Source: Candidatus Brocadiia bacterium
GTDB lineage: Bacteria; Planctomycetota; Uabimicrobiia; Uabimicrobiales; JABWCH01
Length of the DNA stretch: 64,000 nt
NCBI GenBank assembly: GCA_013359215.1
Contig: JABWCH010000001.1
Location: forward strand, 7,528-71,527
Direction of reading: 5' to 3'
The notes below the pieces were generated by a model, which did not search any database, was not told where the DNA came from, and saw only the letters and a list, made by a program, of their open reading frames with translations. Positions 9,722 to 55,411 of this stretch are shown here, piece by piece. Made by a program: the position numbers and the translations under genes. How positions within the stretch are numbered: position 1 is the first letter of the stretch; every line of letters begins with the position of its first letter.

Positions 9722-9739
9722 TTCTATTTCCTGAAACCG

Positions 9740-9812
9740 TAAAATCCCTGGACAAAAATTCTATTTCTAGCTACAATACCAAATGAAGTACCTTCCATCA
9801 AGCAAAAATTTG
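9740..9812. repeat. Right arm of 73-nt inverted repeat bounding the islet
   Basis: See 6404-6476; 67/73 identity in inverted orientation. It begins 19 nt after the Bro-N gene stop. Confidence 0.85.
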
Positions 9813-9836
9813 TAGCTTTTAAAAAAAGGGAGGTAT

Positions 9837-38600: not shown

Positions 38601-40245
38601 GAAATCTTGCCAGATTATCTGGAATGCTATGGAATTTTTCTATACTCTGGCTCAGGTTTTGTATACTGTCTTGATATTCTTCCCAAATAACAGAATGCTC
38701 TTTTTTTAGGTTTCTTGCGATCATTTCTATGGCTTGCCATATATTTTGAGGGTTTTCCATGCTTCTCTGAATATAAGGTAAATACTGCATCAAATAGGGA
38801 TTTTCTGCAATAGAATCTTTCCATTCATCTGAAATATTCATTGCTTGCAATTTCTGCTGAAAGATTTCTTTTTTAAGGGGCTTCAGCTCTTTGAGCAGGC
38901 AAGTATGAACATAAAATTTTTTTAAGATTTCGTCTTCTGGCAATGTACAAAAAGTAAAACCAAAATGAATCCCACAAAAAGGCGATTGCAAATATAAGGA
39001 AACCGCCATAAGAAGATTGGCAACCCAAGGTTTTGTTTGCATAGGGAGATGATCCCATACAACCAGTAAGGAATATTTTTTTGTTTGCTCTTGCCTGTTC
39101 TCTGTCTGGTATATTTCTCTTCCTATTTCACCAAGAGCTTCACCATAAGTTTTTATACAATCTATCAGAGATTTTGGGTTATCCAGTCTTGTAAAAATTT
39201 CCTTGATTTTTTCTCTATAGTCTTTTACAAAATAGTGTGTCATATCCTTTTGGGGAATCAAGCTTTTGCAATATATGCATTCCAGAAATTTTTGCCCTTC
39301 GGTTTCGCCCCTTTTCAGATTATCTGTTTCTTCCTTTTCATAGATTCTGTTACAAACAGGGCATTTATACTCTCGCCTGGGGAAATAGGTATAAAGGGAA
39401 TCCAAAAGATTCTTACGCAAAAATAAAAAAATATCTTCTGGACTTTCTATACTTCTTGCATCCACCATCAAAACAACAGTAGACAAAGGAAGACGATCAT
39501 AAAATGCTTTCCAAAAAGATGTTTTTCCAACGCCAGAAGTACCATACAAAATCAAGCATCTTGGCTTGAAGGAAAGCCCTTGCCATTCTTCAAGGCATTG
39601 TGTTAGATAAGCCATATCTTCTTCTCTGCCTAGTACATCTGCTTTTGCTTCTTTCAGTTGAACAAAGGCAGTCCTAGATTTTTCTGTAAAATTGCCATAG
39701 AATCTTACAGATTCCAATAAAACAGCAAGCTTCTCTCTTAACTCTATACGATCTAGCTGTCCCTTAACAATACTTATGCAAGTCTCCAGCGTTTTATGGA
39801 TTTGCTGAAATTGGATTTCATCCCATCCTAGAGATAAAAGAATTTGCTCCAGTCTTGCCATAGCTTCTACAACAGGAATATCTTTCTGCATGATAATAGG
39901 CTGGAGAGTTATGGGAATCCTATCCAGGGAATCCAGCACTATCTGGCAAAATTGTCTTTTCCAATATTGTTCTTCTTTTGTTGGGAATTCGCCCTGAAAG
40001 GTCAGAATTTCATACAATCTATCCAAAACCTTTTGCCTGGAATCTCCTTTCTTGATTAAAGAAACTAGACTATATTCTGTCTCTTCTAAAAGCTGTTCTT
40101 TCCCAAAAGTCATTGCTAAAATCGCTTCTAAATAAAGCTGTTCTAGCATCATTTTTGTCGTCTGAGACGTATTCACTAGATACTCCTTTTTCGTCAATTT
40201 CCAAAAGTAGGGAAAGGATTCGAGATAAATCGTATAGCAAACCAA
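35650..40245 (-). CDS. STAND / AAA_16-type P-loop ATPase with inserted zinc ribbon and ~1100-aa helical-repeat C-terminus
   Basis: The motif VLGREEDMAYLTQCLEEWQGLSFKPRCLILYGTSGVGKTSFWKAF carries Walker A (DNA about 39512-39556). Walker B-like is YSLLVVWDHL. The zinc ribbon is CPVCNRIY...CIYCKSL. The start is uncertain: 40245 overlaps the upstream gene by 52 nt, and the MMLEQ start at about 40152 is equally plausible. Confidence 0.7.
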   Translation of the reverse strand: MVCYTIYLESFPYFWKLTKKEYLVNTSQTTKMMLEQLYLEAILAMTFGKEQLLEETEYSLVSLIKKGDSRQKVLDRLYEILTFQGEFPTKEEQYWKRQFCQIVLDSLDRIPITLQPIIMQKDIPVVEAMARLEQILLSLGWDEIQFQQIHKTLETCISIVKGQLDRIELREKLAVLLESVRFYGNFTEKSRTAFVQLKEAKADVLGREEDMAYLTQCLEEWQGLSFKPRCLILYGTSGVGKTSFWKAFYDRLPLSTVVLMVDARSIESPEDIFLFLRKNLLDSLYTYFPRREYKCPVCNRIYEKEETDNLKRGETEGQKFLECIYCKSLIPQKDMTHYFVKDYREKIKEIFTRLDNPKSLIDCIKTYGEALGEIGREIYQTENRQEQTKKYSLLVVWDHLPMQTKPWVANLLMAVSLYLQSPFCGIHFGFTFCTLPEDEILKKFYVHTCLLKELKPLKKEIFQQKLQAMNISDEWKDSIAENPYLMQYLPYIQRSMENPQNIWQAIEMIARNLKKEHSVIWEEYQDSIQNLSQSIEKFHSIPDNLARFLKQNKWAVSFRNQVAWNGFWQASLFQSMSKSYLRFWESKWFWQSLRENFAWTSELVSPALAFSLAKKSCTEEQPFWLEKTCLLYLDFFQKTIQAKSCSSFIADSALEMFYSSLQNWPDPKDKAISIYATVSMWKDFSFSSLEKAIKAWGEWYRKGSTLELKKRTILEIFPYVAGQNVYVEQLRFLADMTPSDLRELWNSLQGISYKDLPSFLMKLKFYLSLMLEEFIDALIAVTEEKENAVAIPLPDFSHVENPLDENFLKIFKGIYPGLENQDLERLPCISFSMRKEILQGEIQKMLSKSSSFLGIRHRLQEQEENNTASLLKKVLAISCSDFPFLDLEVNNQKEIMKEQAISLIKHWLEFHHLDRRIEILLKDILIYCPVDIYPLFQEYIEPDAYLGQIIHQTLLCDQKFLDKLDDVEFCFHEPDWDLSLLLRWATQDGISFLTIQDFKEPAKFIVKLRDAIDPVSFYIKNRFSKGLKNPLNSYKTEDAVPSDLLNKITKALNHLLDTSFYKEDVFSQVKLSEDTQALLLQKDLKGRSLVKLNRLLLEDAYPDEISNSIKNIEKLVDAMVYYLEKEENDCKYVYFKKLLQYQSLPESWNIVKSLLKKLDQKRILWQLLSKTIPTMNWWERLAISKTTYRIIANNVPREIPIRSQEMQELYISLFPYWVFILDSPERMQVARIISEKTQMTRSILGNFPQNSSNLYYMFWQHALPENLSQDILSVLLGMYSDGKQHSNISWILGGLFHTMEQPENIYADAVSFWINQGYFFPYPYQIACLHPCKCESMLYQLKGYAMEHYKKEAYWPALLTGLWNIHNLSLEEKKTWQNLLLVYAVQPVKSDIGIQYNIADRYALAGFFCMGGEKIFLQKQDQNKIKIDIDDTTIRGIVYFSLFDDSKKDFDENSLALPDWKEMSERFYSFSFANLFTKEGRDLWYKLQATPYYLLKKQISEQDVDIWFAKLGEEKQRLMNCIMDWKKRQNI

Positions 40246-43200
40246 AGAGAGACTTGATGGTTGTATGATAACGGCAATGTTTTGCTTGGTATATTATGTC
40301 CCCAATTCTTTTTGACAGAATGTGTAGTCACATCCCATTCTTCCTTATAATCATAAGGTAATTCATGGGATATATTTTTCTTAGATGAGGATTTTTCTAT
40401 TTCTTTTTGCCATGTACTTCCAATGGTTATTTCCTTCATTCTAACAATATCAGATTCTGAGCTACTCTTGTAATTGTTATGTTCTGGTCTATTATGTTTA
40501 CAGGCTATTTCTATGATAATTTTATCCTCATCATCTGGAATGCCTGTGGTAATTGTACCTAATAGTATTTGCTGGTATTCTTCAGCACAATTGAAAAAAA
40601 ATGCTTTCTTTTTTTTCATTGTATCTTTCCCAAATTGCACATTTCCTGATAGGCTGGCTATTCTATCGTTTCCCTTTCTATCAAAGTATATCTTTATCTC
40701 AAAAACACACGATTCCAAAAACGTCTTGTACTGCGTTTCCATGCGCTTTGCATGTAATGAAGACTGGCAATACAGCTTTATCTCTTGCCTCATTTCTGAA
40801 ATCTTACCATTATCGAAATAATTTCGGATATTTTCATGCCATTTTTTATCGTATTTTTGCTTTTCGTTAATATCGTTTATAAGCTTATCGAAATAGTAAT
40901 TGCTATACTCTATCCTATGTTTTTCTGGAAGAGCCTGTATTTTTTCTTTTATATTTGCTATCTTGCCGAGTGTATCTTGGTATCCGTTCTTTTTTAGCTT
41001 TTCATCGCTATAGACATAAGAGAATTTTTCGATTCCAATATTTTCTAAATCCATTTTTATATTTTTTATGATAGGCTCTATTCTCATCCTCTCTTGATTT
41101 TCTTTTTTTTCTTGTTCTTCTTTCTTCTTCTTTAAATTCTGTAGAGTCTGTAGATTTTGATTCATAGTGTTCGATAGTTCTCTACGATGCGATTCTGTCA
41201 ATAATTCCTTAGATATCTTAGAACTGAGTAACGAAAGCTTTTCTATCTTGGGAGCAAATTCCTCTGTATTGCTGCGTATAATTTCTTCAAGATTTGTTTT
41301 CAGCCTTCCATAGTTCTCTTCTTTTCTTTGCTCCTGCTCTTGTTTCTGATTCTTTAAGTTTTGCAAGGCTGCTTCGATACTATTCAGTAGCTCTGTTCGA
41401 TTCTCTTCCTTAAGGGATTCTTCAGGAATATCCGATTTTATTTTAGAAAGCTTGGTTATCTTGCTATCGAATTCCTCTGCATTGTTGCCTAGTATTTCTT
41501 CAAGATTTGTTTTCAGCCTTCCATAGTTCTTTTCTTTTTTTTGTTCCTGCTCTAGTTTCTTGTTCCTTAAGTTTTGCAAGGTCGCTTCGATACTATTCAA
41601 TAGCTCTGTCTTGAGTAATTCTTTAGGAAGATTCACTTTAATTTGAGAAATCTTTTCTATCTTGAGATCAAATTCCTCTGTATTGTTGTCCAGGATTTCT
41701 TCAATCTCCTTTTTAAAAGTTTTATAATTTTTTGCCTGTGTAGAAATTTGTAGCAGATTTTCTTTAAAAGTCTTCAACTCTTTCGATAATTCTGTAAAAT
41801 TTTGTTCTTTTAATAAAAACTCTTGGAGAAGCTTAGATTCTATTTGAGAACGCTCTGTTTCTGTGCTTCCCAATTCCTCTTCAGAGACTTTTGCTATTAT
41901 ATTCTCGAATTTGTTTATTTTTGATTGAATGGCTTCAATATGTTTTTTATAGTTCTGATATCTTTCTTTTTGTTGTTCCCCCAAATTTTTAATTGTATCT
42001 TTTATATTGTTTTCTAAATCGCTTTTTTTTGTGATAAGGTTTTGATAGCTTTTATTTTTTAATCTTGTCTCTATAATATTTAGACTATTTATAGAATTAA
42101 GTAACTCTTCTAAATCTTTTTCTAAAAAGTCAAAATATTTTATATCTTTCTTGGCTTTTATAATGTCCTGTTGCAAAATATTTTTTAGCTTTTTAAATTC
42201 ATTTGATTTTTCTTCAAGCTGTTGGGTTATCTCTTTGGAATATTGTTTATCCATCTCCTCTAATGTATTTTTTTTTAATGATAAAGAATCCTTTAATTCT
42301 TTACACTCCATTGAAAGTTCATTTCTTTGTTCCAAGGTGAGATTAATATTGTTTTGCCAGATAGCTGCATAGATTTCGTCTGATCTTTTTTCCATGCCAG
42401 AGATATTTACAATTTGTTGATCAAAAAAATGCTCCTCACTTTCACTTTTCATGATTTGGATTTCTGAATTTATAGTCTCTATACTTTTTTTTATATTTTC
42501 ATAATTTTTATTTTTTTCTAATATATCGTCTCGTTTTTTTGTTAAACCTTTCTCCTTTGTATCTATCTTTTTTTCAAGATTTTCTAAATTTTCCGATAAA
42601 ATTTTAGATTTGTTTAAGTCTAATTTGCCATTTTCCAATTTCTTGTTTATTTCGTCTAAAATTGTTTTGGATTCTTGAGCCATTTCCTTCAATTTTTTCA
42701 AATCTTTTTCCAACTCATTCAGACTACCAGATATTGTAATTGCATCAACGTCCTTTTGAAGGGTTACTATTTTTCTATCTAACTCTTGGAAATTTTTTTC
42801 TTTCTCTTTTTCTTTCTCTTCGATGCTATTTTTCTTGCTCTCTAGCTCTATTTTTTTTGTATCTATACTTTTTTGAACATCGCCTGAACTTTTTGATAAT
42901 AAGAAAATTTTATCTTCTTCTATCTCTCTTTTTTTATGCTTTACTTCTTTTGAAATCTTTTGATATCTTATTGTTATATCAGACAAGTTTGCTAAATTTT
43001 TTTCCAGATCATTCAGGTTGTCAGGTATTATGATTTTAGCAATGTCAGTTTGAAGGGCTGCTATTTCTCCGTCTAGCTTTTGAAAATTTTTCTCTTTCTC
43101 TTGTATACTCTTTTTCTTCTTTTCTATCTCTGTTTTTTTTGCATCTATATTTTTTTGAACATCGCTTAACCTTTTTTCTAACTCTATTTTTTTCTGCTTT

Positions 43201-45503
43201 GCTTCTTCTGAAACCTTTTGATATCTTATTGTTATAATAGACAAGTTTGCTAATTTTTTTTCCAGATCATTCAGAATATCAGGTATTGTGATTGCATCAA
43301 TGTCCATTTGAAGTGTTGTTAATTCTCCATCTAACTTTAGAAAATTTTTATCTTTCTCTTCAATGCTCTTTTTCTTGCTCTCTAGCTTTGTTGTTTTTAT
43401 ATCTATATTTTTTTGAACCTCGCTTAACCTTTTTTCTAACTCTATTTTTTTTTGCTTTGCTTCTTCTGAAATCTTTTGAAATCTTATTGTTATAATAGAC
43501 AAGTTTGCTAAATTTTTTTCCAGATCATTCAGAGTATCAGGTATTGTGATTGCATCAATATCCGTTTGAAGGGCTGCTATTTTTCCATCTAACTCTCGAA
43601 AATTTTTCTCTTTCTCTTCGATGCTCTTTTTTTTGTTCTCTAGTTCTGTTTCTTTTTCATCTATCTTTCTTTGAACATCGCCTAATTTGGATGATAATAG
43701 ACTTACTTTGGCTTCCTCTATTTCTTTCTTTTTATGGTTGGTTTCTTCTGAAATACTTTTAAAAGTTTTTCTTATTTCGGAAAATCCATCCAGATTTTTA
43801 TTTAGCTCATTTAGATTATCCGATATTGAGATTTTCTCTACTTCCTTTTGCAAGGCTGTTATTTTAGTATCCATGTTCTGAAAGTTTTTCTCTTGCTCCT
43901 GCTTATTTTGAAAAAAAACGAAACAAACAACCAAGAAAAGCAAAAAACATAATGATGCACCGAAAAACACCCTTTGTCTCTTGTTTATTTTTGTACATAG
44001 AGAAGCAATCTTTTTTTTGCAATCCAAAGCTTTTTCTTTGTATTCTGACAGTGAATCTTTGCTAAAAAAAAGAGAAAGCCTTTCTTTAGCCTTTGCAAGG
44101 GAATCTTTTTTCAAAAAATCCACAATCTTTTCTTTGCAATCTGATAAAAAATTTCCTGATTCTGTTATATCCGTATCTGTTTTTATGGGAGCAGAGATGT
44201 TTTTTTCTTTTTGCTTGATTTCCTGAAGAAAAACTAAAATCTCTTTCGCTTCTTTTCGGGTACTTTCGTCATAGTGTTTTTCTGCAACCTCAAAGAAAAT
44301 GTCCCAAAAATCTGCTGCTGTAAAAAGCAGAGAATTTTTAGATCCTTGTTCCTGAAGTGACTTCAAATCAGAAGATATATCTCTACTGTTATAGAGAATG
44401 CCCTGCAAAATTTCTTTCTTTTCTTGTTCTTTTATTTCTGTAGAAAGAATCTCCTGGTTTTGTATATTGATACTATATTTAGGATAAAAGGCACTAAAAA
44501 GAGAAAAGGCATAGTTTCTTATCTCTTTATCATTCGACTGCATATAAAGAAATAAAACAGAAAGCCCAAAAGGATTTCCTATACCAGCTATGCCTTGTAA
44601 AAAATCCACTTTGGCAGAGGAAGCATATTTATTAGAAAAAGCATTTGCTTTAGGAATGCTTTCTGTTCTCTTTTTGAGAGACTCTACTTTAGGCATGCTT
44701 TCCGTTCTCTTCTTAGCAGAGTCCAAAACCAAAGGACACTCATAGTCTTTTAAAGACTCAAGCTTTTCCTGGCTTTGATTTCCTGGCACACCCACTATCT
44801 TAAAAAACAGGTTGAGTTTTTGTTTGCTTTCCAAAGGATGAAATTTAGTAAGACTGACAAAGGAAAGTTTTCTTTTTTGATTTTCTGGTAAATGAGAACA
44901 AATACATTCTAAAAGGCCAAGAGCCTGCGACCACTGGCTATAGCCATAAGGTAGCACCATAGAACTCTGCATTCCTTCGAATAAAAACTGCATTTCTTCT
45001 ATTGTTTTTTTTATCTTTTCAGGAACTTCTGGCATTTTTTGCGATTCAGGAAGAGCAAGTGCCTTTGCTCTAGATATATTTCTTTCTGCTGGTTGATCGG
45101 GAAGACAAGACTGCCACATTTTCTCTAAAAAACCACTGCGTACCAAAGAGAAGGGATGGTATTGGTATTTTTGAGAATATATTTCTTCTGGTATTGCAAT
45201 AAAAAAAATTCTGAATGCTGGCCGTCCTGTAGTATCGCGGAAAGATTTAAGGTAACCAATCACATAGTAGGGTTCTGTGTACTGCAATTGTTCAGGTGTC
45301 CATACCAAAAGGCTAGGAACACGAAAAATTTCTTCCTTGACCAGGGTTTTGATATCCTGGTAAATCTTTCCTGCAGGGCATTGAAATAAAGCCTGAAGCT
45401 TTTTGGGGAAACCAGGGGAAAAAGAATCCCACCAATCCCAATCTTTGTCCATCTCTTCCTGGGTGTATTTCCCAAAAACCCCATAGTGGTATTTTTCTAT
45501 CAT
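40194..45503 (-). CDS. Giant (1769 aa) single-TM protein: ~500-aa N-terminal globular region, TM helix, ~1000-aa tandem-repeat coiled coil, C-terminal beta-rich domain
   Basis: The ORF is continuous. The TM helix is VFFGASLCFLLFLVVCFVFF (DNA about 43900-43960). The heptad-rich region is K/E/L/I/N-rich and contains two internal repeat families. Confidence 0.75.
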   Translation of the reverse strand: MIEKYHYGVFGKYTQEEMDKDWDWWDSFSPGFPKKLQALFQCPAGKIYQDIKTLVKEEIFRVPSLLVWTPEQLQYTEPYYVIGYLKSFRDTTGRPAFRIFFIAIPEEIYSQKYQYHPFSLVRSGFLEKMWQSCLPDQPAERNISRAKALALPESQKMPEVPEKIKKTIEEMQFLFEGMQSSMVLPYGYSQWSQALGLLECICSHLPENQKRKLSFVSLTKFHPLESKQKLNLFFKIVGVPGNQSQEKLESLKDYECPLVLDSAKKRTESMPKVESLKKRTESIPKANAFSNKYASSAKVDFLQGIAGIGNPFGLSVLFLYMQSNDKEIRNYAFSLFSAFYPKYSINIQNQEILSTEIKEQEKKEILQGILYNSRDISSDLKSLQEQGSKNSLLFTAADFWDIFFEVAEKHYDESTRKEAKEILVFLQEIKQKEKNISAPIKTDTDITESGNFLSDCKEKIVDFLKKDSLAKAKERLSLFFSKDSLSEYKEKALDCKKKIASLCTKINKRQRVFFGASLCFLLFLVVCFVFFQNKQEQEKNFQNMDTKITALQKEVEKISISDNLNELNKNLDGFSEIRKTFKSISEETNHKKKEIEEAKVSLLSSKLGDVQRKIDEKETELENKKKSIEEKEKNFRELDGKIAALQTDIDAITIPDTLNDLEKNLANLSIITIRFQKISEEAKQKKIELEKRLSEVQKNIDIKTTKLESKKKSIEEKDKNFLKLDGELTTLQMDIDAITIPDILNDLEKKLANLSIITIRYQKVSEEAKQKKIELEKRLSDVQKNIDAKKTEIEKKKKSIQEKEKNFQKLDGEIAALQTDIAKIIIPDNLNDLEKNLANLSDITIRYQKISKEVKHKKREIEEDKIFLLSKSSGDVQKSIDTKKIELESKKNSIEEKEKEKEKNFQELDRKIVTLQKDVDAITISGSLNELEKDLKKLKEMAQESKTILDEINKKLENGKLDLNKSKILSENLENLEKKIDTKEKGLTKKRDDILEKNKNYENIKKSIETINSEIQIMKSESEEHFFDQQIVNISGMEKRSDEIYAAIWQNNINLTLEQRNELSMECKELKDSLSLKKNTLEEMDKQYSKEITQQLEEKSNEFKKLKNILQQDIIKAKKDIKYFDFLEKDLEELLNSINSLNIIETRLKNKSYQNLITKKSDLENNIKDTIKNLGEQQKERYQNYKKHIEAIQSKINKFENIIAKVSEEELGSTETERSQIESKLLQEFLLKEQNFTELSKELKTFKENLLQISTQAKNYKTFKKEIEEILDNNTEEFDLKIEKISQIKVNLPKELLKTELLNSIEATLQNLRNKKLEQEQKKEKNYGRLKTNLEEILGNNAEEFDSKITKLSKIKSDIPEESLKEENRTELLNSIEAALQNLKNQKQEQEQRKEENYGRLKTNLEEIIRSNTEEFAPKIEKLSLLSSKISKELLTESHRRELSNTMNQNLQTLQNLKKKKEEQEKKENQERMRIEPIIKNIKMDLENIGIEKFSYVYSDEKLKKNGYQDTLGKIANIKEKIQALPEKHRIEYSNYYFDKLINDINEKQKYDKKWHENIRNYFDNGKISEMRQEIKLYCQSSLHAKRMETQYKTFLESCVFEIKIYFDRKGNDRIASLSGNVQFGKDTMKKKKAFFFNCAEEYQQILLGTITTGIPDDEDKIIIEIACKHNRPEHNNYKSSSESDIVRMKEITIGSTWQKEIEKSSSKKNISHELPYDYKEEWDVTTHSVKKNWGHNIPSKTLPLSYNHQVSLWFAIRFISNPFPTFGN
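41100..41720. repeat. ~225-bp in-frame tandem repeat (about 2.5-3 copies) inside the 1769-aa gene
   Basis: The unit encodes EEF(D/A).KI.KLS.I....P.E.L....ELLNSIEA.LQNL.N.K.EQEQ.KE.NYGRLKTNLEEI. The DNA blocks at 41218-41400 and 41440-41620 are near-identical. Confidence 0.8.
42500..43900. repeat. ~256-295-bp in-frame tandem repeat (5 copies) inside the 1769-aa gene
   Basis: The unit starts (KNF.(K/E)LD...) lie at about 43893, 43611, 43350, 43094 and 42799. The unit encodes KNF..LDG.I..LQ.DIDAITIPD.LNDLEKNLANLS.ITIR(Y/F)QKISEEAKQKKIELE....VQK.ID.K..ELE.KKKSIEEKE. Confidence 0.85.
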
Positions 45504-45553: not shown

Positions 45554-48500
45554 TTATCTTATGGAAGAAGATACGGTGAAATTATATGTCGCTTGTTTGG
45601 GAATAGAAAAATGGCTTCCTTTTACCAATTTCCAGAAATTGGTTATAGAAAAAGATTCGTTATGTTGGGGCAACTCGCATACCAATACAACAGGAATACT
45701 ATTTCCTGCACTATGGCTGGACATATTCCATTCTAGCTCCACTTCTTCTTCTGGCCTTTTATTGCCTTTCACTTTCACGTCAATATTAGCAGGACGTTGA
45801 TGATTTCTGGTTTCATGGTGTGTTCTCCTAAAAGGCCAGATACCTGTTTTCCATGTATGTTCTGTTGCCCATCTAACTACGAAGTCATGGCTTACACGAA
45901 CAACCAGCCTGATTTTATAAGTTTGCCCAAATTCCTTTTGGAAATTTTGCAACCTTTGAGACCATTGGAAACATTCCTGATCATAGCTTTCTTTAGCTGC
46001 GGTTAATGCAGTAATTTCGCTATGGAAATTCTGGCTCACTTCTTTCCAGGAATCATGAGGAAGACCTAGCTTTTCTTGAATATCACGGGCATGGTTTTGA
46101 AATTGCCCTATGGTATCTTTGCTTATTTTTGCACTTTCCGCCCGTATTTGATTTTGTTCGAGTTTTTCTTTTTCTCCTCGTAGGTTTTGGATATATGGTG
46201 CTATATCTGTTTCATAGCCTGGTTGAAGCATTGTTGATTTTAGGTTTTCTATGCTATTGAAACCATTGCCAAATATAGTAAAATACTCCCTTGTCGCATT
46301 TGCCAGACGATTTTTTTCTTCTGTCACTTTCGCTGCTGTCTGCGCCAGACTGTCGAGAAGACCTTGTTTAGTTTGAGTGCATAGTTGTATAAATTGGCTT
46401 AAATCTTGTTGTAAGACAACAGCTTGATTTTGTTTTACTCTCATATCTTGTAAAATTTTATCGATTTCTCCTTTTTTTTGTTTTATAATCCCTTTTTTCG
46501 CTAAAAGCTCTCTGGTTTTTTCTCGATATTGTTTAGATGAGAGTCTTTTAGAAAGACCTTCGAACTCATCTTTCAAATCTTGTAGATGTACAGGGTTAAG
46601 TGCTTGAAGCCTATCATTTATAATGCGTTGCAAATGTTCAACATCATTGTTACAGGCTTTTTCTATATCTTTCCCCTGATTATCCATTCTTTCTAATCTT
46701 ACTGCATGAGGAGATAAATCTGTTTGCCATTGCTGCAATTTTTTTTCTATGCTTTCTTTGCTCGCTACTATTTTGGCATCTAAAGCCCCTGCGCTGCGAA
46801 GTTTTTCATCCACAGGGTAAACAGACTGCGAAAGTACTACCCTTTCCTGGTTGTAGGAAGCAAGAGTTGCTTCCACATCTTTGATGGTGCTGTTATAAAC
46901 AGGCTGTAAAGTATAAAGCCCTTCGGTTATATGCAGATCATCATTCAAATCTTTTTGCTGTTTGTCCAAGGCTTCTTCTATTTTTACGAATTGCTTGTTT
47001 TGGTTTAAATATTCCTTGTAAAATTCGTTCCATTCCTGTTCATTCTTCAAAAAAATTTCCAAAGATTCTTTGATAATACCTGCTGCTTTTTTTATTTTTT
47101 CCCCTTCTAAAGGGAAGATATTTTTTTCTAATTGCCTATTTCCCTCTGCTATTCTATTGTTAGCTTTGTAAGAATAGAGGGTTTCTTTTTCAAACTGCAT
47201 ATAAAAATATAGGACAATTTCATTCATCCGTTGATGGATATGAATATTCCCCAAAGAAAAAGTTTTGGAAGAAATACTAGAAACAAGAGAATCAAGCTTT
47301 TCAAAAGTCCTTTCTGCCTCTATGTCTTGCAAGGAAAGATTAAGGTAGAACTGACACATATCCAGTATATTTTTCCTTGGAGTATCCAGAGAAGGCATCC
47401 AGGCTTTTTTCAGAGCATTTTCAGGAAAAGCAGCCATAGAAGGAGGAGTCTTAGTCCCCAACATCTCTAAATAGCTTGTCCATGCTTTTTTACTATGCTT
47501 TTTAAAGCTCTCAAAGCTTTCTTTGGAATTGTTTTCTGCAAAGCCCAAAATAGGATTGGTAGAGCTCATGGTATAGTCTAAAAAATAAGAAGATACCATT
47601 TTGCTCCAATTTTCCTGATACTTTTGACGGCATAGGGCTATTCCTTTAGCACTGATTTCTTTTCCATAGCTGTTTAATTCCTGATTGCCCTGCTCTGTTT
47701 TAGGCCATAAAGCTAAAGCCATTTGCATAGTTTTCGAGAACAAGGAATCCAACTCTGTTATTTTTCTATCCAAAGGTGCTTTTTCTTGGCGAAAGCTAGT
47801 CCAGTTGCTTTCTATTGCCTTGAATGTAGACTCAACCAACATTTTTTGTTCGCCTGTTTCCAAAAGCATAAATATATGATTGATAAGGGGCTTTAAATAA
47901 CCAAATCTTTCCACATCTTTTGACATTGCTTGCATCTCTTGGAGAATGCGTTTTCTGTCTTCAGGATTGAGCTGATTGTTGTTAGTCCATGTCTTGATTT
48001 TATCCAATATTCCAGAATTCCTAAAATTCTGAATACAAGATTTGTAAAATTCCTGGCTTTTTTTATAAAAAGCTATTTGTGCCTTGACTTCGCTATCTAT
48101 ATCTTTGGATTCTAGCCTGGGCATTTCCTGGATAATGTTTTGGAAATCAAGATATTCTTTTTCTATATTTTCTAGATATGTCATATTGCCTGCAATGATA
48201 TTTTTTTCTAGCTTACCTAAATCGCCATCGATAGATGTGTCTAAGGTGATCTTACGTCTCTCGGAAGAATCCTGTGTTATAGCTAAATCGGGGCCTAGCC
48301 CCTTAAAATCAAAATTTTTTTCACATTCAAAGGAAAAGTTAATCAACATGGCATTTCTGTTATTCAAAGAATCTAGCTTTTCGTAAATATCCTTTGCTAG
48401 AATTTCATAGCACAACAGTTCTTTTTCATAAATTTCTTTGTTGAGAATAATAAGTTGTATCTTTTTTCTCAACTCCTGCATTTCTTTGAATCTTTGCAAA

Positions 48501-51500
48501 GCCGATTTCTTGGGGAGTTCAGAAGCAAGTTTTTTCCATTCTTCCTGCCATAGATTCTTGAGAAGATTTTCCAAACCCTGAGTATCTTGCTTTGCTTCTT
48601 GCAGCCACATTTTGATGGAAAGTAAAGAATCCAATCGCTGATTCCATCCGACTAAGTCTGTGGCAAGTTCCAGACGTATGTGCCAATTTAATCCAGTTGC
48701 CCAGTTTTGAAACCAGCTGTCTCTTATAGTATTCTTGCTTTTCTGACTATAGTCTTTTATTTTTCCCTTCTTTTCTAAAGAAAGCCCGTATTCCATGAGA
48801 GCAACTTTTTCTAAATCCCAGAAAATTTCCAACCGCTTTGTGTATTCTTCATTTTTAGAGAAAACCAAAGCAATATCTTTACTTAAAGCATTTCCTTCTA
48901 TCTCATAAAATTTACTTTCTATTTCAGCAAAAGGAGCATAGCAAATTTCACTATATTTTTCACCATATACACTTTGAAGTGCTTCCGCACTTGCTAAAAA
49001 GTAAGCTACAGCCTCTTTTTGCTCTGGGTGAGTGCTTAGAAGCGAAACGCCTTGTTTGAGATACTCTTCTAATAGAACGTTTTTCGGACTATCCACATTC
49101 TCTTTTTCCAGGGATTTCACAATTTGTTTTTGATAGAACTCCCAAACCTGGTCAAAAAGAGAACCTTTTTTGAGGTCTTCTATTTTCAGATGCGATTGAA
49201 GATAGCTTAGAAGAAGTTTTTTCCCCTCTTCCTCGAACAAATTTTGCAGGAGTTTTTCAAAAGCATGAGTATCTTGCATACCCTTTTTTATCGAAAGGAA
49301 GACAGCAAAGGTTTGTTTCCATTGTGTTAAGCCAGAACCGAGCTGCAACTTCATCTGATTCCTTAGTGCTATTGCCCAGGATTTAAACCAATTGTTTCTT
49401 ATAACAATTTTATCTTCCTGGCTATCGCTTTTTATCTTATCCTTTTTTTCTAAAGAAAGCCCGTATTCAATGAGGCGCACTTTTTCTAAATCCCAAAATC
49501 GCTGTAATCTCTTCATGTACTCGTCCGTTTTAGAAAAAGCTGAAGCAATATCCTTTGTTAAGGAAACTCCTTCTGTTTCATAAAATGCAGTTTCTATGGT
49601 TGCAAAAGGACTATAGATTTCCTTGTATTTTTCCCCATATAGCCCTTGAAGTGCTTCTGCGCTCGCCAAAAAATAGGATACAGCCTCTTTTTGCTCTGGG
49701 TGAGAACTGAGTAGCGAAACACCTTTCTTTAAGTACTTTTCTAACAATGTATTTTTAGGTGTGTCAACCTTTTCTCTTTCCAAAGAAGTCACAACTTGTT
49801 TTTGGTAGAAATTCCAAACCTGATCAAAAGAAGAACCCTTTTTAAGGTCGTCTATCTTCAAATGATCTTGAATATAGATTATAAGAAATCTTTTCCCCTC
49901 TTCCTCAAATAAATCCTGGAGGAGATTTTCAATATCCTTGCTGCCTGGCATAGAGTTTTTTATCGCAATTAAGGAAGCATAAGTTGGCTTCCAATGCACA
50001 AGGTCTGTATTAAACTGCGAACGCAGATGATTCCTTAGTGCCTCTTTCCAGTCTCCAAACCATTCACTTCTTATGGTGCTTTTTTGTTCTGAGCTATATT
50101 GTTTTAGTATATCTTGCTTTTCTAAAGAAAGCCCATATTGTGAAAGACGGACTTTTTCTATATTCCAAAAAGCTTGTAAGCGTTTTGCATATTCTTCATT
50201 TTTAGAAAAAAGCAAACCCAAATCGCTCTTTAAAACACTTCCTTCGCTTTTATAAAAGGCACTCTCTAGTTTGACAAAATGAGGATAGCAAATTTCATTA
50301 TATGTCTGACTTTTCGTTATTTCTTTAGAGTAAACATCTTCCAATAATAAGCGGTTACATTGGATCAATTGATTTTGGCTATGATTTTGTTTCAATAATA
50401 GTCGTTTCGATTCTACGGACAATTGTATATTTGCAAATTTCTTTTCTTCATAAATATTTCCAGCCCGAATAATCTCGTTCATTGCCTTTACTAAAGCTTC
50501 TTCTTCTATTTCCTCATTATTGGTCAATTTTTGTTGTATTTCAGCGGGTAATTTACCTTTTATCCATAAACAAAGCGAATCATCAGGCTTTTTAAGGCTG
50601 GCAACGAGCAAGCTTCCCTTTTCTTTAAAATCGCCCACATTAAATAGTAAAGAGCGATATTTTATGCCGTATATATTTTGAAGCGTTTCTACTGCTGTTA
50701 AAAAATAGGATATAGCATCTTTTTGCTCTGGTTGAGAGCTGAGTAAGTCGACTCCTTTTTTCAGATAAACTTCTAATACATCATTTTTAGATGTATCGAA
50801 TATTTCTTTTTCCAGATATTTTATGACCTGTTTTTGATAGAATTCCCATGCCTCCGCAAATTGAGAACCTTTTTTAAGATCGTCTATTTTAAGGTGTTGT
50901 TCAATATATCTTATAAGATTGCTTTCCATACACACTAGAATAGTCTTCAAAAAACCTTTCCATAATGCAAAAAATTCGCTTGGTGAAAACTTTTCGCTCT
51001 TTTCTAAATCGTGAAGGCTTTTTAAAATTTTGCTGGCTTCTGTTGCTTCTTTTTGGCCTGACGCTTCCAGAATAATAAGCCCTAAAAAATTTCTCAATCC
51101 TTGTATTCTTTCCTGCAAACCTGCAACAGTTGAAAGTTTTTCCATCTGAAGAGCTATATCAGGCCAGAGATAATGATAATAAAAAGGTGGCTTCATTTTG
51201 GCCAGCAGGCTATAATCATTCTTTTGTGATGTAAAAGAAATCTTTTCAACCTCTTGATGCGTTTCATACAAGGGATACAGAACGATCCCTGCCACTATAG
51301 TAAAAAAGAACAATACCATCGCAGCAAACTGAGATGCTTTAATCATCTTGCTTCTATAGCCTGAAACAAGCTTTTTTTCGTCCAGCCAGCGAGCTACCTG
51401 ATAGAACATGGCATGTATACCACGAGGCTGTAGTGGCTTTTTAGGAATATTAACTAAAGTTTCTTTTCCTGTCATGGGATCTGTCTCCACGACCTTCTCC

Positions 51501-52585
51501 ACTGCTCCTACTGCCGATGTAAAAAAAACGTCCAGATTCATGGTAATCTTGCGAAGCTTGAGGACAATCTCTTCCATTTGGTTCATGATCATTTCAACCG
51601 ATTTGCCCCACTCTGGGTTATAGTAGGCATTTTTAGGATCAAAGTAAGGGGCTATTGTCCTGGCAACCAAAACTGGATAGGGTAGCCCTAAAAAGATATC
51701 TTTTCCTCTAAAGATTTGGTAGGCTTCTTGCAAAGCATGGGGAGGCCATCGTTTTTTACCGTATTTTTTATAGACAGCCTCTACATGGCGATTAAAGCCA
51801 GGGATCTCGTCTGCTTTTGTTATGTTTAAACCAAAATTGATCTTTTCCAAAGGCGCATTGCTGTCCTTGATTGCCTGCAAAATAGAATGGAATGCATTCA
51901 AAGCATCTGTTTTGCAGGGATAATGAGGAATCAGCCCTGGAATAGAAAAAGGGTCCAAGAGATATAAAACAACATCGCTTGTGGCAAAAAAATTGAAAAT
52001 TTCAGAAATAGCCTGCAATTTTTTTTCACCCTGAAGCCCATCCAGATTAGCCCAGGCACCCTTAAAGTCTTTTGTTATGATCGAGTTTGAATCACAATTT
52101 CCATTTTCATCAATGCAGTGCAATTCAAATCGCAAATCTGTTGTAAACTCCGTACCTGATATAAATTGAGGTTTTTCGCCATTGAGAGTAGCAAATGCCC
52201 GTTTCAGATATTCGATCTGCTCTAACAAGGCAGCCAGATTGTTTTCTTGAATCTTCTCTTCTCTCGTAGCCAGACTATTCTTAGTTGTTGAAACTATAGC
52301 TAAAGAAGTGGATGGAGAATCGGCCTTGTCATCGCTCTTTTTTTCTTTGACTTCCTCTTTTTGCTCACTCTTTTTTGCTTTATCTTCTTGTCCTGCTTCT
52401 TTACTAATATGCAGGCGATCTACAAGCCTTATGCCATTGTATTCTCCCATAGTAGCCATTTGTGGATAGGCTGCTCCCCAATATTTGATAACGGAAAATT
52501 GGACAGTCTTCCCCATTCCAGTAATTCCAATTACACCAAGTCTAAACTCTTTCTTGTCTTTCATAAATCTACTTATCCTTTCCAA
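45554..52585 (-). CDS. Giant (2343 aa) protein: N-terminal TRAFAC-type GTPase, TM helix, three ~224-aa tandem repeats, long helical region, C-terminal beta-rich domain
   Basis: G1 is VIGITGMGKT, G3 is KDFKG, G4 is ITKAD and G5 is FFTSAVG. The TM helix is ASQFAAMVLFFFTIVAGIVLYPLY (DNA about 51270-51340). The ORF is continuous over 7 kb. Confidence 0.75.
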   Translation of the reverse strand: MERISRFMKDKKEFRLGVIGITGMGKTVQFSVIKYWGAAYPQMATMGEYNGIRLVDRLHISKEAGQEDKAKKSEQKEEVKEKKSDDKADSPSTSLAIVSTTKNSLATREEKIQENNLAALLEQIEYLKRAFATLNGEKPQFISGTEFTTDLRFELHCIDENGNCDSNSIITKDFKGAWANLDGLQGEKKLQAISEIFNFFATSDVVLYLLDPFSIPGLIPHYPCKTDALNAFHSILQAIKDSNAPLEKINFGLNITKADEIPGFNRHVEAVYKKYGKKRWPPHALQEAYQIFRGKDIFLGLPYPVLVARTIAPYFDPKNAYYNPEWGKSVEMIMNQMEEIVLKLRKITMNLDVFFTSAVGAVEKVVETDPMTGKETLVNIPKKPLQPRGIHAMFYQVARWLDEKKLVSGYRSKMIKASQFAAMVLFFFTIVAGIVLYPLYETHQEVEKISFTSQKNDYSLLAKMKPPFYYHYLWPDIALQMEKLSTVAGLQERIQGLRNFLGLIILEASGQKEATEASKILKSLHDLEKSEKFSPSEFFALWKGFLKTILVCMESNLIRYIEQHLKIDDLKKGSQFAEAWEFYQKQVIKYLEKEIFDTSKNDVLEVYLKKGVDLLSSQPEQKDAISYFLTAVETLQNIYGIKYRSLLFNVGDFKEKGSLLVASLKKPDDSLCLWIKGKLPAEIQQKLTNNEEIEEEALVKAMNEIIRAGNIYEEKKFANIQLSVESKRLLLKQNHSQNQLIQCNRLLLEDVYSKEITKSQTYNEICYPHFVKLESAFYKSEGSVLKSDLGLLFSKNEEYAKRLQAFWNIEKVRLSQYGLSLEKQDILKQYSSEQKSTIRSEWFGDWKEALRNHLRSQFNTDLVHWKPTYASLIAIKNSMPGSKDIENLLQDLFEEEGKRFLIIYIQDHLKIDDLKKGSSFDQVWNFYQKQVVTSLEREKVDTPKNTLLEKYLKKGVSLLSSHPEQKEAVSYFLASAEALQGLYGEKYKEIYSPFATIETAFYETEGVSLTKDIASAFSKTDEYMKRLQRFWDLEKVRLIEYGLSLEKKDKIKSDSQEDKIVIRNNWFKSWAIALRNQMKLQLGSGLTQWKQTFAVFLSIKKGMQDTHAFEKLLQNLFEEEGKKLLLSYLQSHLKIEDLKKGSLFDQVWEFYQKQIVKSLEKENVDSPKNVLLEEYLKQGVSLLSTHPEQKEAVAYFLASAEALQSVYGEKYSEICYAPFAEIESKFYEIEGNALSKDIALVFSKNEEYTKRLEIFWDLEKVALMEYGLSLEKKGKIKDYSQKSKNTIRDSWFQNWATGLNWHIRLELATDLVGWNQRLDSLLSIKMWLQEAKQDTQGLENLLKNLWQEEWKKLASELPKKSALQRFKEMQELRKKIQLIILNKEIYEKELLCYEILAKDIYEKLDSLNNRNAMLINFSFECEKNFDFKGLGPDLAITQDSSERRKITLDTSIDGDLGKLEKNIIAGNMTYLENIEKEYLDFQNIIQEMPRLESKDIDSEVKAQIAFYKKSQEFYKSCIQNFRNSGILDKIKTWTNNNQLNPEDRKRILQEMQAMSKDVERFGYLKPLINHIFMLLETGEQKMLVESTFKAIESNWTSFRQEKAPLDRKITELDSLFSKTMQMALALWPKTEQGNQELNSYGKEISAKGIALCRQKYQENWSKMVSSYFLDYTMSSTNPILGFAENNSKESFESFKKHSKKAWTSYLEMLGTKTPPSMAAFPENALKKAWMPSLDTPRKNILDMCQFYLNLSLQDIEAERTFEKLDSLVSSISSKTFSLGNIHIHQRMNEIVLYFYMQFEKETLYSYKANNRIAEGNRQLEKNIFPLEGEKIKKAAGIIKESLEIFLKNEQEWNEFYKEYLNQNKQFVKIEEALDKQQKDLNDDLHITEGLYTLQPVYNSTIKDVEATLASYNQERVVLSQSVYPVDEKLRSAGALDAKIVASKESIEKKLQQWQTDLSPHAVRLERMDNQGKDIEKACNNDVEHLQRIINDRLQALNPVHLQDLKDEFEGLSKRLSSKQYREKTRELLAKKGIIKQKKGEIDKILQDMRVKQNQAVVLQQDLSQFIQLCTQTKQGLLDSLAQTAAKVTEEKNRLANATREYFTIFGNGFNSIENLKSTMLQPGYETDIAPYIQNLRGEKEKLEQNQIRAESAKISKDTIGQFQNHARDIQEKLGLPHDSWKEVSQNFHSEITALTAAKESYDQECFQWSQRLQNFQKEFGQTYKIRLVVRVSHDFVVRWATEHTWKTGIWPFRRTHHETRNHQRPANIDVKVKGNKRPEEEVELEWNMSSHSAGNSIPVVLVCELPQHNESFSITNFWKLVKGSHFSIPKQATYNFTVSSSIR
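48520..50910. repeat. Three ~675-bp in-frame tandem repeats inside the 2343-aa gene (first copy carries a ~340-bp insertion)
   Basis: The unit starts HLKI(D/E)DLKKGS.F..(A/V)W.FYQKQ lie at about 50898, 49866 and 49194. The conserved blocks include SLLS.HPEQKEAV.YFLASAEALQ..YGEKY and RL..FWDLEKV.L.EYGLSLEKK. Confidence 0.85.
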
Positions 52586-53657
52586 TGATTGGATTACTCA
52601 TCTCAGATTCTGAGAAGATGGACATAGTTTTTGTCGTGTCACGCAATTTCGCCATCCCTGCCTTTTGATATTGCCATGCTGCTTCTAAAATAGCACATAC
52701 TAACAGGAAAATGGTTATCAAAAGCAACACCGATAAAGAAAGGGAATGATTAAAACGAAAGTGGATTTTTTTCCATAGTCTGGGAATAAAGCTTATCACC
52801 CGTTTAAAAAAATAGCTCTCATGGCACTCTATAAGCTTTTTCTCTATGCTGTCCTCGATAATTTTTTTCAATAAAGGCGATTTTTGGACAAACCAGTATT
52901 CTTTTTTGAGAATCCTGCCTGATGAAAACATAGACTTGATGTATATATCTTGAGGATTCCAGGCATTAGACAATTTACTCCCATAGAAAAAAAACCAAAA
53001 AAAAGGATCTTTTTCACTTCCCCCTTCTTCTGGATTTTCTAAATCCATGTATTGCGTTGGAGAAACATGTAAGAGTTCCAGGCTAGGAGAAAGAAGATTC
53101 CAAAGCTTTTGGATTAAAAAAAACTGCACTTGTGCTATATTTTCTGGATTAGCAAATTTTATACGGCCAGATTCTAATGAGCCTCTCTTCATAAGAGTGG
53201 GCATCACGGAAAACAGGAGGTGGTTCTCTATCTTTTTGGGCAATGGTTCTTCTTTAGAAGAAGAGCAGATCACCTCTGTTTGGTCCGTTAAATAAATCCA
53301 TTGGAATTTTTCTGGTATCACCAATCTTCCATCTTTTGGAGAAACGACAATCTCTTCTTGTGTATTGCTAAACTTTAAGTCTGGCAAATCAAGAATGGTT
53401 GCGCTTTCCATAGTAGATGTTTTCCAACAATAGTAAAGTATCTCCCAATTTATAGCCCAGAAAGCATCTATACGAAAAAATTTTCCTTCTTTATTCCAGA
53501 TGCCTTGTTCCATAGTTTGTATCAGGGCATCCATAAGCCTGGGGTTATTCGCATGATCTTTTATACAAAAGATGGTGTCTTCAAAAGCCTTCTTGTATTG
53601 TACTACATCTAGCACAGGAAGGCTCAACTGGTGGAAAAGGGTATGAAATCTAAACAT
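52569..53657 (-). CDS. Unknown-function protein, C-terminal TM anchor; paralog of 23969-25048; overlaps the giant GTPase gene start by 17 nt
   Basis: See 23969-25048 for the shared blocks. The stop lies inside the first codons of the 2343-aa ORF, which suggests translational coupling. Confidence 0.6.
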   Translation of the reverse strand: MFRFHTLFHQLSLPVLDVVQYKKAFEDTIFCIKDHANNPRLMDALIQTMEQGIWNKEGKFFRIDAFWAINWEILYYCWKTSTMESATILDLPDLKFSNTQEEIVVSPKDGRLVIPEKFQWIYLTDQTEVICSSSKEEPLPKKIENHLLFSVMPTLMKRGSLESGRIKFANPENIAQVQFFLIQKLWNLLSPSLELLHVSPTQYMDLENPEEGGSEKDPFFWFFFYGSKLSNAWNPQDIYIKSMFSSGRILKKEYWFVQKSPLLKKIIEDSIEKKLIECHESYFFKRVISFIPRLWKKIHFRFNHSLSLSVLLLITIFLLVCAILEAAWQYQKAGMAKLRDTTKTMSIFSESEMSNPIIGKDK

Positions 53658-53745: not shown

Positions 53746-53802
53746 AAAAAAAAAGATGAAACAAAATCTGACTATGATGAAGAAAGCAGATTTTGTTTCA
53801 TC
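53746..53802 (-). terminator. Rho-independent terminator of the upstream (63.3->55.4 kb) operon
   Basis: A perfect 16-bp stem, gatgaaacaaaatctg (53755-53770) / cagattttgtttcatc (53787-53802), with a 16-nt loop. On the minus strand it is followed by a run of 9 T (53746-53754). Confidence 0.75.
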
Positions 53803-53814
53803 TCAAATCCAATA

Positions 53815-55399
53815 GGGTGCAATCCAGTTATTTCGGAAACTAAAATCAAGCGGCTCTCCTTACCAAATGTGAAATAGAGCTAGAATTTTGTCGAGAAAGA
53901 AAATTCATCATATATCTCCAACGATTGGCAAGGAAAAGTCCCCGAAGAAAAATAAGTTTTTCAACATTTTCTTCTTTCCAAAACGTACTTGGAGATTTAT
54001 AACGCAAATTTATCAGACGGCGGACAGCAGATTCAACAATTCCACTGCCACATGGAAGCTTGTGATCCTTGAGTACGGGATAGTTCATACGGTGTTCGTG
54101 TTTTTGAAAATATTTAAGAGCATCAAGAATATCTTTGCATCTGTGATGGCTGCGGGCTATGGATTTCACCTTGGCAATAATTCGATGAACCTTGCCATTT
54201 TTCAAAGATTTCTTTAGAGTGACAAAAAGGTTCTCTCGTTCTTTCTTTTTCCATATCTGTGGATAAATGAGCTGAACAAGCTTTGAAAGATGCTCGACTG
54301 CATGGTAGAAGTCAATAGTTTCATGAATTATCTCTTCTGGAACACCCAATTTTACAAGGGTATTTTTGGCTCGATTCCAAATCCATTCTGCTCCGTCAGC
54401 AATAAATAAAACCTCTTTTGCTTTTTCGATCTGCAACTCTTGTAGATATTGTGATAAAAGTTCAAAACATTCATCAGCTTTTTGCTCTCCAATTACTAAA
54501 TCATACACAGGAAGTTCGGTCTTTGAAATTTTTCCATTCTCGCCAATAACATGGATGACAAATAATTTAGGTTCCTTCCAAGGAGTATCAAATGGAGTCC
54601 TTTTTCTTTTATTTTTTTTGCTTTTATTTTTTTCTGGATTTTCTTCTCTGATTCGAGTTCGTCCTCCGTCAACACTTATTATTACACGTTTTCCTACCAA
54701 GTTTTCTCCAGGTTTCAGGGCTGCTTGAATTCGATTTGACATGCTTTTACTTCCCACAGCATAAGCAATATCTCGAACTCTTTTGTAGGTTGCTTCGATT
54801 TGTTGATGCTCCAAGACTTGTACAACAATTTCAAAAGAAGGGCAAAGCACAGAAAGTTGAGTTACTAATGAATAGTATGAGGGCGTAGCCTGCTTGATAC
54901 AACCCCAATAATAAAGAAGAAGGTGACATCCTGATCCATTCGGTCCACGTTTTTTCTTTCTTTTAGACTTGCTTTCCACCGCAAACCAGGAAAAAATTCG
55001 AATCGTATTTCCTGTTTTTAGTTGTATATCTACCTCTTCTTTACGCACCTCGCCGAGACCTTTTTTTTGTGCAATAGTCCTTGCTATATCTTCTAGCTCT
55101 TTTGATTTTGCTGCTTCTAGGATGAATACAAATGGCAAATTTTTATATAATTCCGTGATGGCTTTGTATAAATCTTCTTCAAAATCTAGAAGATTTCCCT
55201 GAAGCAAATAATTATAAATTTTAGAGGTGATTTCTTTGACTTTTTCTTCAAATTGGTCAATAATAGGAGGAATTAGTTCTAATAGCATCTTTCTTTCCTT
55301 TAATAAGGTTTTATTAACTAAAAGATGCTATTTTACTACTTCCTTCAGAAAGCAACACAAAAAAATCCAAATCACTTCCGAAATTATTGGATTGCGCCC
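53815..55399 (-). mobile_element. 1585-bp insertion sequence, ISKra4/ISLre2-like, with 24-bp terminal inverted repeats and 9-bp target-site duplication
   Basis: IRL is gggtgcaatccagttatttcggaa (53815-53838). The rc of IRR is gggcgcaatccaataatttcggaa (55376-55399); 21/24 positions match. The flanking direct repeat AATCCAATA lies at 53806-53814 and 55400-55408. Confidence 0.85.
53846..55288 (-). CDS. DDE transposase (ISKra4/ISLre2-like)
   Basis: 480 aa. The blocks ISVDGGRTRIRE, LFIADGAEWIWNRA and DFYHAVEHL match transposases of these families as I recall them. The family call is from memory of ISfinder traits (GGG ends, 9-bp DR, ~1.5 kb). Confidence 0.75.
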   Translation of the reverse strand: MLLELIPPIIDQFEEKVKEITSKIYNYLLQGNLLDFEEDLYKAITELYKNLPFVFILEAAKSKELEDIARTIAQKKGLGEVRKEEVDIQLKTGNTIRIFSWFAVESKSKRKKKRGPNGSGCHLLLYYWGCIKQATPSYYSLVTQLSVLCPSFEIVVQVLEHQQIEATYKRVRDIAYAVGSKSMSNRIQAALKPGENLVGKRVIISVDGGRTRIREENPEKNKSKKNKRKRTPFDTPWKEPKLFVIHVIGENGKISKTELPVYDLVIGEQKADECFELLSQYLQELQIEKAKEVLFIADGAEWIWNRAKNTLVKLGVPEEIIHETIDFYHAVEHLSKLVQLIYPQIWKKKERENLFVTLKKSLKNGKVHRIIAKVKSIARSHHRCKDILDALKYFQKHEHRMNYPVLKDHKLPCGSGIVESAVRRLINLRYKSPSTFWKEENVEKLIFLRGLFLANRWRYMMNFLSRQNSSSISHLVRRAA

Positions 55400-55411
55400 A
55401 ATCCAATATTG

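Follow-up and report, generated by a model that had tools for sequence, protein, structure and literature searches.

The best-described relatives of the GTPase considered here are the DO-GTPases, a TRAFAC family that often occurs as two paralogs per system, predicted to dimerise (Kaur et al., PMC7159879). Their conserved partner, GAP1, is encoded adjacent to the GTPase or fused with it, the GTPases carry a conserved glutamate in the Walker B motif and are often membrane-associated, and they occur with STAND NTPases and repeat proteins (PMC7159879). The other described systems of interest are type VI secretion systems (T6SS); PMC10781749 describes for Bacteroidota a non-canonical T6SS membrane complex, TssN/O/P/Q/R, unrelated to TssJLM. 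This study concerns a stretch of 64,000 nucleotides (nt), called here the window, from contig JABWCH010000001.1 of a Candidatus Brocadiia bacterium (Planctomycetota), in which a small family of helical proteins is encoded next to, and in one case fused with, a GTPase that resembles the DO-GTPases. That the helical domain and the GTPase domain are functionally coupled is well supported by the comparison of sequences and gene order given below.

An earlier sequence-only reading of the window had pointed to four open reading frames (ORFs) of 362, 359, 667 and 2343 amino acids (aa). All are present as described, and their products are called here W362, W359, W667 and W2343, other window proteins being named by length in the same way. 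W362 and W359 are the paralogs they were said to be (BLASTP 2e-42, 31% identity over 331 aa). When 1.84 billion cluster representatives were searched exhaustively by HMMER with a W362+W359 profile, five proteins were recovered, two of them fragments of the window's own genes and three real homologs (P0004, P0005 and P0006; 348-370 aa, E 1e-30 to 1e-14). Word-indexed searches with W362, W667 and the GTPase alignment gave only fragments or copies of the window's own proteins, and no homologs were found in two scans of a species-representative genome collection or in a scan of viral contigs. Because neither W362 nor W359 is as close to any outside homolog as it is to the other, W359 is a later, lineage-specific duplicate. 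The helical domain has no match in Pfam, NCBIfam, PADLOC or PDB. An AlphaFold2 model of W362, made from a six-row alignment, is all-alpha with low confidence (predicted local distance difference test, pLDDT, 63), and Foldseek found no match to this low-confidence model in PDB below E 2.

The claim that the N-terminal ~330 aa of W667 belong to the same family could not have been settled by BLASTP, which fails to find a significant match (E 0.16 and 0.077 for W362 and W359), nor by the two-sequence profile of W362 and W359 (P 0.021, also not significant). With a profile of five family sequences, residues 18-317 of W667 align over 250 collinear columns (hhalign P 1.1e-6, probability 91%). When the two fused N-domains, that of W667 and that of a 712-aa protein from locus L002 (described below), are themselves made into a profile and compared with the stand-alone profile, the result is E 1.2e-7 with a probability of 94%, the gain coming from the addition of the second fused ortholog. 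The real W667 segment scores 52.2, while shuffled versions of it (n=200) have a mean of 15.0 (standard deviation, sd, 2.6; maximum 23.1), its reversal scores 14.9, and 56 natural segments (~335 aa) from all other window proteins score at most 21.5. One of the outside homologs, P0006, matches the W667 N-domain directly (tblastn E 5.6e-4). Three collinear motif blocks (W-E/G-I/L-x-Y-x-x-W; P-x-N-H/Y-...-P-x-L-F/M-K; D/N-P-F/W-x-W-F/I-F/W) and significant profile similarity are present in W362, W359, P0004, P0005, P0006 and the two fused N-domains, and 11 residues do not vary among the six jointly aligned sequences; N145 and R286 are such invariant residues. A gene caller begins W667 at Met6 (662 aa, P0002).

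Might the resemblance be convergent or compositional, arising from aromatic-rich helical segments, so that the family would have just two members here and there would be no fusion at all? The failure of pairwise BLASTP is what one would expect in that case, and the hhalign probabilities of 91-94% are not >99%. HMMER gives the W667 N-domain 12.6 bits with high bias, a score equalled by an ORF (53873-54214, plus strand) antisense to a transposase gene, which in a window-only search matches the pre-transmembrane segment of the family HMM with E 1.2e-4 and was judged a chance hydrophobic/basic match. HMMER alone was rejected as a test of membership because of this chance equal, and since it is not decisive, the call rests on the calibrated profile comparison. 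There, the alignment is collinear over 190-250 columns with the motif blocks in the same order, the score stands ~14 sd above the shuffles and at more than twice the best natural control, significance rises with the second fused ortholog, and the domain holds the same position relative to the GTPase as it does in the split genes. Convergence seems to us very improbable, and homology of the N-terminal ~320 aa of W667 to W362 and W359 is well supported, if not beyond doubt. Together, the 362- and 359-aa proteins and this part of W667 are a new all-alpha domain family.

The link between the helical domain and the GTPase emerges from the settings of the homologs. Far from being mostly unlinked to the GTPase, all three outside stand-alone homologs (L002/L003, L004, L005) are directly followed by a gene for a giant protein with a GTPase at its head. 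The giants are 1512, 1299 and 1481 aa in length, the genes overlap by as much as 23 nt or stand up to 12 nt apart, and the first ~400 residues of the three match the head of W2343 (1e-83, 4e-60 and 4e-54). The fused form also recurs: L002 holds a 712-aa ortholog of W667 (tblastn 3e-57) as well as a split pair (355 aa + 1512 aa), just as the window does, so that each of the two genomes found to have the fused gene also has the split pair. The order, helical domain and then GTPase, is identical in the two forms. In L002, the gene between the fused one and the split pair (8113-9849, minus strand) is oriented divergently from the pair, and its 578-aa product matches protein kinases and sigma-70 region 4 below threshold.

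Ortholog groups were drawn from bit-score matrices for both domains. Within the split group, the GTPase scores 180-299 bits and the helical domain 58-168 bits; for the fused group the values are 160 and 56 bits, and between the groups they are only 63-115 and 17-33 bits. The groups correspond for both domains, and because they mirror each other in this way, the split and fused forms are old paralogs that have diverged in parallel. This result bears in two ways on the sequence-only reading, which had proposed the fission or fusion of one gene. Its core inference, a Rosetta-stone argument that the two domains work together, is borne out by the 3/3 adjacency, the recurring fusion, the common order and the matching groups. 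The fission or fusion itself is not, as the two forms are coexisting ancient paralogs. Nor is the fusion a simple joining of two parts: the fused copy lacks both transmembrane (TM) helices and the C-terminal extension of ~1900 aa. The amphipathic segment found ahead of the TM helix in stand-alone members is kept by the fused proteins, and in these the P-loop strand of the GTPase begins at the place that the TM helix would occupy. Positions of these and other features are collected in Table 1.

Table 1. Positions within the window of the helical/GTPase genes, their neighbours and an insertion sequence (IS)
Feature	Position	Strand	Length	Remarks
W359, second stand-alone family member	23969..25048	-	359 aa	TM helix 312-336 (nt 24041-24115); last gene of minus-strand block
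W596, VgrG-like spike protein	25592..27382	-	596 aa	PF04717 Phage_base_V/VgrG 26.0 bits vs cut-off 23.8; further weak VgrG matches
Weakly gp25-like baseplate-wedge protein	29364-29786		140 aa	E 4.5e-4
W667, soluble fused paralog	32256..34259	-	667 aa	Family domain ~18-317 (nt 33309-34208); GTPase 331-667 (nt 32259-33269); no TM helix
W459, weakly TssK-like baseplate protein	34263..35642	-	459 aa	TIGR03353 E 1.1e-3, below cut-off; immediately upstream of W667
W1531, large P-loop protein, fourth module gene	35650..40245	-	1531 aa	AAA_16/STAND-like, below threshold
W1769, third membrane protein of module	40194..45503	-	1769 aa	TM helix 512-530, then K/E-rich coiled-coil repeats (tandem, roughly 95 aa each) over ~1240 aa
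W2343, giant	45554..52585	-	2343 aa	N-terminal ~410 aa GTPase (nt 51356-52585); TM helix 419-441 (nt 51263-51331); then ~1900 aa of helical repeats
W362, stand-alone family member	52569..53657	-	362 aa	Predicted cytoplasmic domain ~residues 1-300; TM helix 303-327 (nt 52677-52751); 35-aa tail
IS element	53812..55402	-		27-nt terminal inverted repeats 53812-53838 and 55376-55402; ISKra4-family transposase gene 53846-55288 (-)
Weakly DUF4280/PAAR-like protein	60600-61154		184 aa	E 0.024

The GTPase domain is shared by residues 341-667 of W667 and residues 86-406 of W2343 (BLASTP 4e-31), as had been claimed. Its motifs, G1 GxxxxGK[ST], DxxG, [TS][KQ]xD-IPGF and S[AS], are kept in eight sequences, with G..GK, D..G and D-IPGF invariant in the alignment of the eight. 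By this set of motifs it is a TRAFAC-class GTPase, and weak matches to G-alpha, MMR_HSR1 and Dynamin_N fit that class. Profile searches of PDB sequences gave G-alpha and FeoB-type P-loop matches, all sub-threshold. The window copies have no DO-GTPase hit (PF19993/PF19975), and the GTPase of L005 scores 21.2 bits where the gathering score of DO-GTPase2 (PF19993) is 27. Two more distant GTPase-headed proteins from JGI metagenomes, L006 (51% G+C) and L007 (65% G+C), pass that score with 29.2 and 32.1 bits, their PF19975 matches being weaker, and both have the Walker-B glutamate (DY[KS]GE). They match the head of W2343 (tblastn ~1e-13) and also W667 (1e-10 for L007, 1e-4 for L006). The window GTPase is, on this chain of similarity, a divergent relative of Pfam DO-GTPase2.

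Hydropathy indicates a single C-terminal TM helix in 5/5 stand-alone members of the helical family, confirming what had been said of the window proteins; it follows an amphipathic IPR..RK..FRF.HS segment and is absent from both fused members. Every giant likewise has exactly one TM helix, immediately after the GTPase domain. Basic residues flank the helix on its N-terminal side in all stand-alone members and giants (a positive-inside bias), and for this reason both the helical domain and the GTPase are predicted to be cytoplasmic. The same heuristic topology predicts that the tails of 21-48 aa and the extensions of 900-1900 aa would lie beyond the membrane. The C-terminal regions of the giants diverge quickly, only the first ~640 aa of W2343 aligning to the L002 protein. 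In the translation of W2343 after its TM helix (45554-51260), three repeats ~300 aa apart can be read, each starting HLKI(D/E)DLKKGS.F..W.FYQKQ; a BLAST self-comparison listed the full-length self-match only.

The sequence-only reading had the W362 gene overlapping that for W2343. The 17-nt overlap exists only with a doubtful TTG start at 52585. An ATG at 52564, 4 nt after the TAG of W362, is preceded by AAGGA and matches the N-termini of homologs better, and is likely to be the true start. With the ATG favoured over the TTG, the two genes probably abut rather than overlap, and what remains of the claim is their tight coupling.

The pair does not stand alone. Downstream of W362 and W2343 lie W1769 and W1531, and all four have N-terminal parts that are conserved in L002, with partial conservation in L004 and L005 (that of W1769 in all three loci; W1531 in L002 and weakly in L004). 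Between 42 and 44 kb, within the W1769 gene, G+C falls to 0.28 and AT skew to -0.35. Such a four-gene module invites comparison with the systems built on DO-GTPases and GAP1/GASH (Kaur, Burroughs, Iyer and Aravind 2020; PF19993, PF19975). Like them, it has a TRAFAC-class GTPase of the same superfamily in two paralogous copies per locus (the head of W2343 and W667; in L002, the 1512- and 712-aa proteins), a conserved non-enzymatic partner adjacent to or fused with the GTPase, frequent TM anchoring, and a STAND-like NTPase (the AAA_16-type giant W1531) and repeat proteins. Unlike theirs, the partner is an undescribed all-alpha domain located upstream of the GTPase or N-terminal to it, the GTPase heads a TM protein of 1300-2300 aa, and the setting is a gene block that resembles a T6SS or contractile injection system.

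One may ask, then, whether the module is a self-contained conflict or regulatory system of the kind described in 2020, with the helical domain in the place of GAP1/GASH, that merely neighbours the injection genes or gates them. The relationship of the GTPase to the DO-GTPase2 and DO-GTPase1 families speaks for this, and so does the typical composition of such systems (a pair of paralogous GTPases, a partner encoded beside them or fused, TM components, and as variable parts STAND NTPases or repeat proteins; PMC7159879). Moreover, the retrieved stretch around the module in L002, L004 and L005 contains unrelated genes and none for an injection apparatus. However, Pfam finds no GAP1 (N, M or C domain) and no GASH in any module protein, PADLOC has no match for the module, and the partner is upstream, not downstream. 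The fused copy, furthermore, is interleaved with baseplate-type genes in the window, and in L007 the pair comes directly after tssG and a tssK-like gene. We think an independent system unlikely.

The injection-type genes just mentioned require closer description. The left part of the window contains ordinary metabolic and cell-wall genes. The right-hand two thirds has ~35% G+C. One long minus-strand block, in which few genes match known families, runs from 23969 to at least 63343. Gene order in the block is W362, W2343, W1769, W1531, then the TssK-like gene, W667 directly downstream of it, and the baseplate and spike genes. Proteins of 605, 503 and 211 aa, encoded between the gp25-like and PAAR-like genes, match no family. 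By its VgrG-, TssK-, gp25- and PAAR-like genes, the block is recognised as a T6SS or contractile-injection-type locus of a very divergent kind. At its downstream end, W359 is separated from the VgrG-like gene by a NUDIX hydrolase gene (25108-25578, PHROG 6.6e-19), which one would hardly expect in a block for an injection system.

The helical family had been thought to bracket this locus, with W359 closing the array at its 3' end. W359 is indeed the last gene of the minus-strand block, and a terminator-like hairpin follows it after 75 nt, but the family does not delimit the 5' side. The IS element interrupts the block just upstream of W362, between it and a 986-aa gene, and beyond the IS the block resumes on the same strand (55412-63343) and includes the weak PAAR-like DUF4280 match. 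A perfect 17-nt hairpin (53754-53803) sits between the end of the IS and the start of W362. Farther on, 63405-63968 is listed as a 187-aa plus-strand ORF with a HELLH zinc-peptidase-like motif; the plus-strand translation has six stop codons, so the listed strand or coordinates are inconsistent.

The nearest counterpart to the membrane form of the pair within such machines would be TssL (DotU) and TssM (IcmF). In both cases the gene for a small all-alpha cytoplasmic protein with one C-terminal TM helix adjoins that for a large membrane protein whose P-loop NTPase domain is cytoplasmic and which has a big part beyond the membrane, and the pair adjoins tssK-type baseplate genes (in L007; in the window this is true of the fused copy). 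Around the TKxD-IPGF motif there are weak, sub-threshold IcmF-related_N matches. The differences are considerable: there is no significant similarity to the DotU, ImcF-related or IcmF_C domains (the last two give no Pfam hits in the giants), the window-type giant has one TM helix rather than the three of TssM and its NTPase is at the extreme N-terminus, no TssJ was seen, and the soluble fused paralog has no counterpart in TssL/TssM. Since the layout is alike while membership by sequence fails or stops at sub-threshold matches, the pair is proposed to work like TssL/TssM, not to be TssL/TssM. The Bacteroidota complex (PMC10781749) offers a precedent, in that a T6SS lineage without TssJLM homologs uses lineage-specific membrane proteins encoded in the cluster. 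That complex, as described there, has no GTPase component, and a sequence relationship to the window proteins is not expected.

In L007, genes for TssG (7.8e-17) and a TssK-like protein stand directly upstream of that for a 328-aa protein with a C-terminal TM anchor, which is followed by the GTPase-headed TM protein. The 328-aa protein and its counterpart in L006 are homologous to each other (5e-14), and both are treated here as positional analogs only. An upstream fragment in L006 has no similarity to TssK-like proteins. The gene directly upstream of the family gene in L004 (9166-9849) and L005 (9202-9888) encodes ~228 aa with a phage-tail Collar domain (PF07484; 31.7 bits vs a cut-off of 24 in L004, a weak precomputed hit in L005); it has no counterpart in the window.

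How might such a system operate? We suggest that the helical domain serves a divergent DO-type (TRAFAC) GTPase as its dedicated partner and that the membrane pair is the anchor or switch of a T6SS-like or contractile-injection-like machine, a proposal that we judge moderately probable. The pair comes in two paralogous forms, both encoded in one locus. In the membrane form, a tail-anchored helical protein, its N-terminal domain presumably cytoplasmic, is encoded directly upstream of a giant that has one TM helix, with its N-terminal GTPase presumably in the cytoplasm and 900-1900 aa across the membrane. In the soluble form, the helical domain is fused straight onto the P-loop of the GTPase, without either TM helix or the long extension. 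The helical domain may bind and regulate its cognate GTPase, and the membrane pair, with the next two giant proteins, could serve as the envelope anchor or assembly switch of the surrounding apparatus, a role that we infer by analogy with TssL/TssM. Perhaps the soluble paralog connects baseplate and membrane pair, with its GTPase domain and the paralogous one pairing in a GTP-dependent way, an idea suggested by the proposed dimerisation of DO-GTPases and by the position of the fused gene next to the TssK-like gene. A stronger version, in which the pair would be a new envelope anchor of a very divergent T6SS-like machine, replacing TssL and TssM, with the fusion docking the baseplate and a G-protein switch gating assembly or firing, is a tentative idea that we would doubt as it stands.

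Several observations weigh against an anchor or switch of this kind. DotU/TssL is not matched by any of nine sequences in Pfam and NCBIfam at E up to 10, and the PF14331 (IcmF-related_N) matches in L004, L006 and L007 are sub-threshold (12-15 bits, E 0.01-0.1, cut-off 25) and cover just 20-34 residues around the G4 motif. The upstream TM proteins of L006 and L007 are not detectably homologous to the helical family of the window, and the structural genes of the window are unmatched in the retrieved stretches of L002, L004 and L005. The module may be encoded away from the apparatus genes, or the contigs of these three may not have been followed far enough. W359 has no neighbouring GTPase gene. 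The window GTPases (the head of W2343 and the C-terminus of W667) reach no Pfam threshold, and they and their close relatives lack the Walker-B glutamate, having A, G or I after DxxG. A periplasm would hardly have room for a helical or coiled-coil region of 1200-1900 aa beyond the membrane. Finally, both structure models are too poor to use, that of the GTPase, made from two alignment rows, reaching a pLDDT of only 40 and that of the helical domain the 63 given above.

In T6SS effector-adaptor pairs, a small gene tightly upstream of a very large one is typical. The GTPase-headed giant might be a secreted effector or cargo aimed at a host membrane, and the 362-aa family its adaptor, chaperone or immunity protein. 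The tight arrangement of the small family gene and the very large one is then readily understood, the locus has VgrG- and PAAR-like genes, and the fast divergence of the giants' C-terminal regions is what one would look for in cargo. The putative adaptor, however, is TM-anchored in every stand-alone member, W359 has no cargo gene, and the same pair of domains exists as a soluble fusion beside the TssK-like gene. Furthermore, the position next to tssG/tssK is kept in a distant high-GC bacterium (L007), which suits a core component better. An effector with its adaptor strikes us as quite unlikely, and for the cellular role a membrane anchor or switch is favoured over both this and an independent GTPase-centred system.

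The helical domain has kept its link to the GTPase, as adjacency and as fusion, despite having only a handful of relatives among 1.84 billion representative proteins. It provides a concrete protein pair in a lineage in whose injection machinery no membrane-complex genes can be recognised. Should the pair anchor or gate the apparatus, a G-protein switch would be built into a T6SS-like system, and the DO-GTPase family, which was defined in conflict systems, would reach further than these. Should the module be an independent system centred on the GTPase, the DO-GTPase family would gain a new partner domain and a new membrane-anchored architecture.

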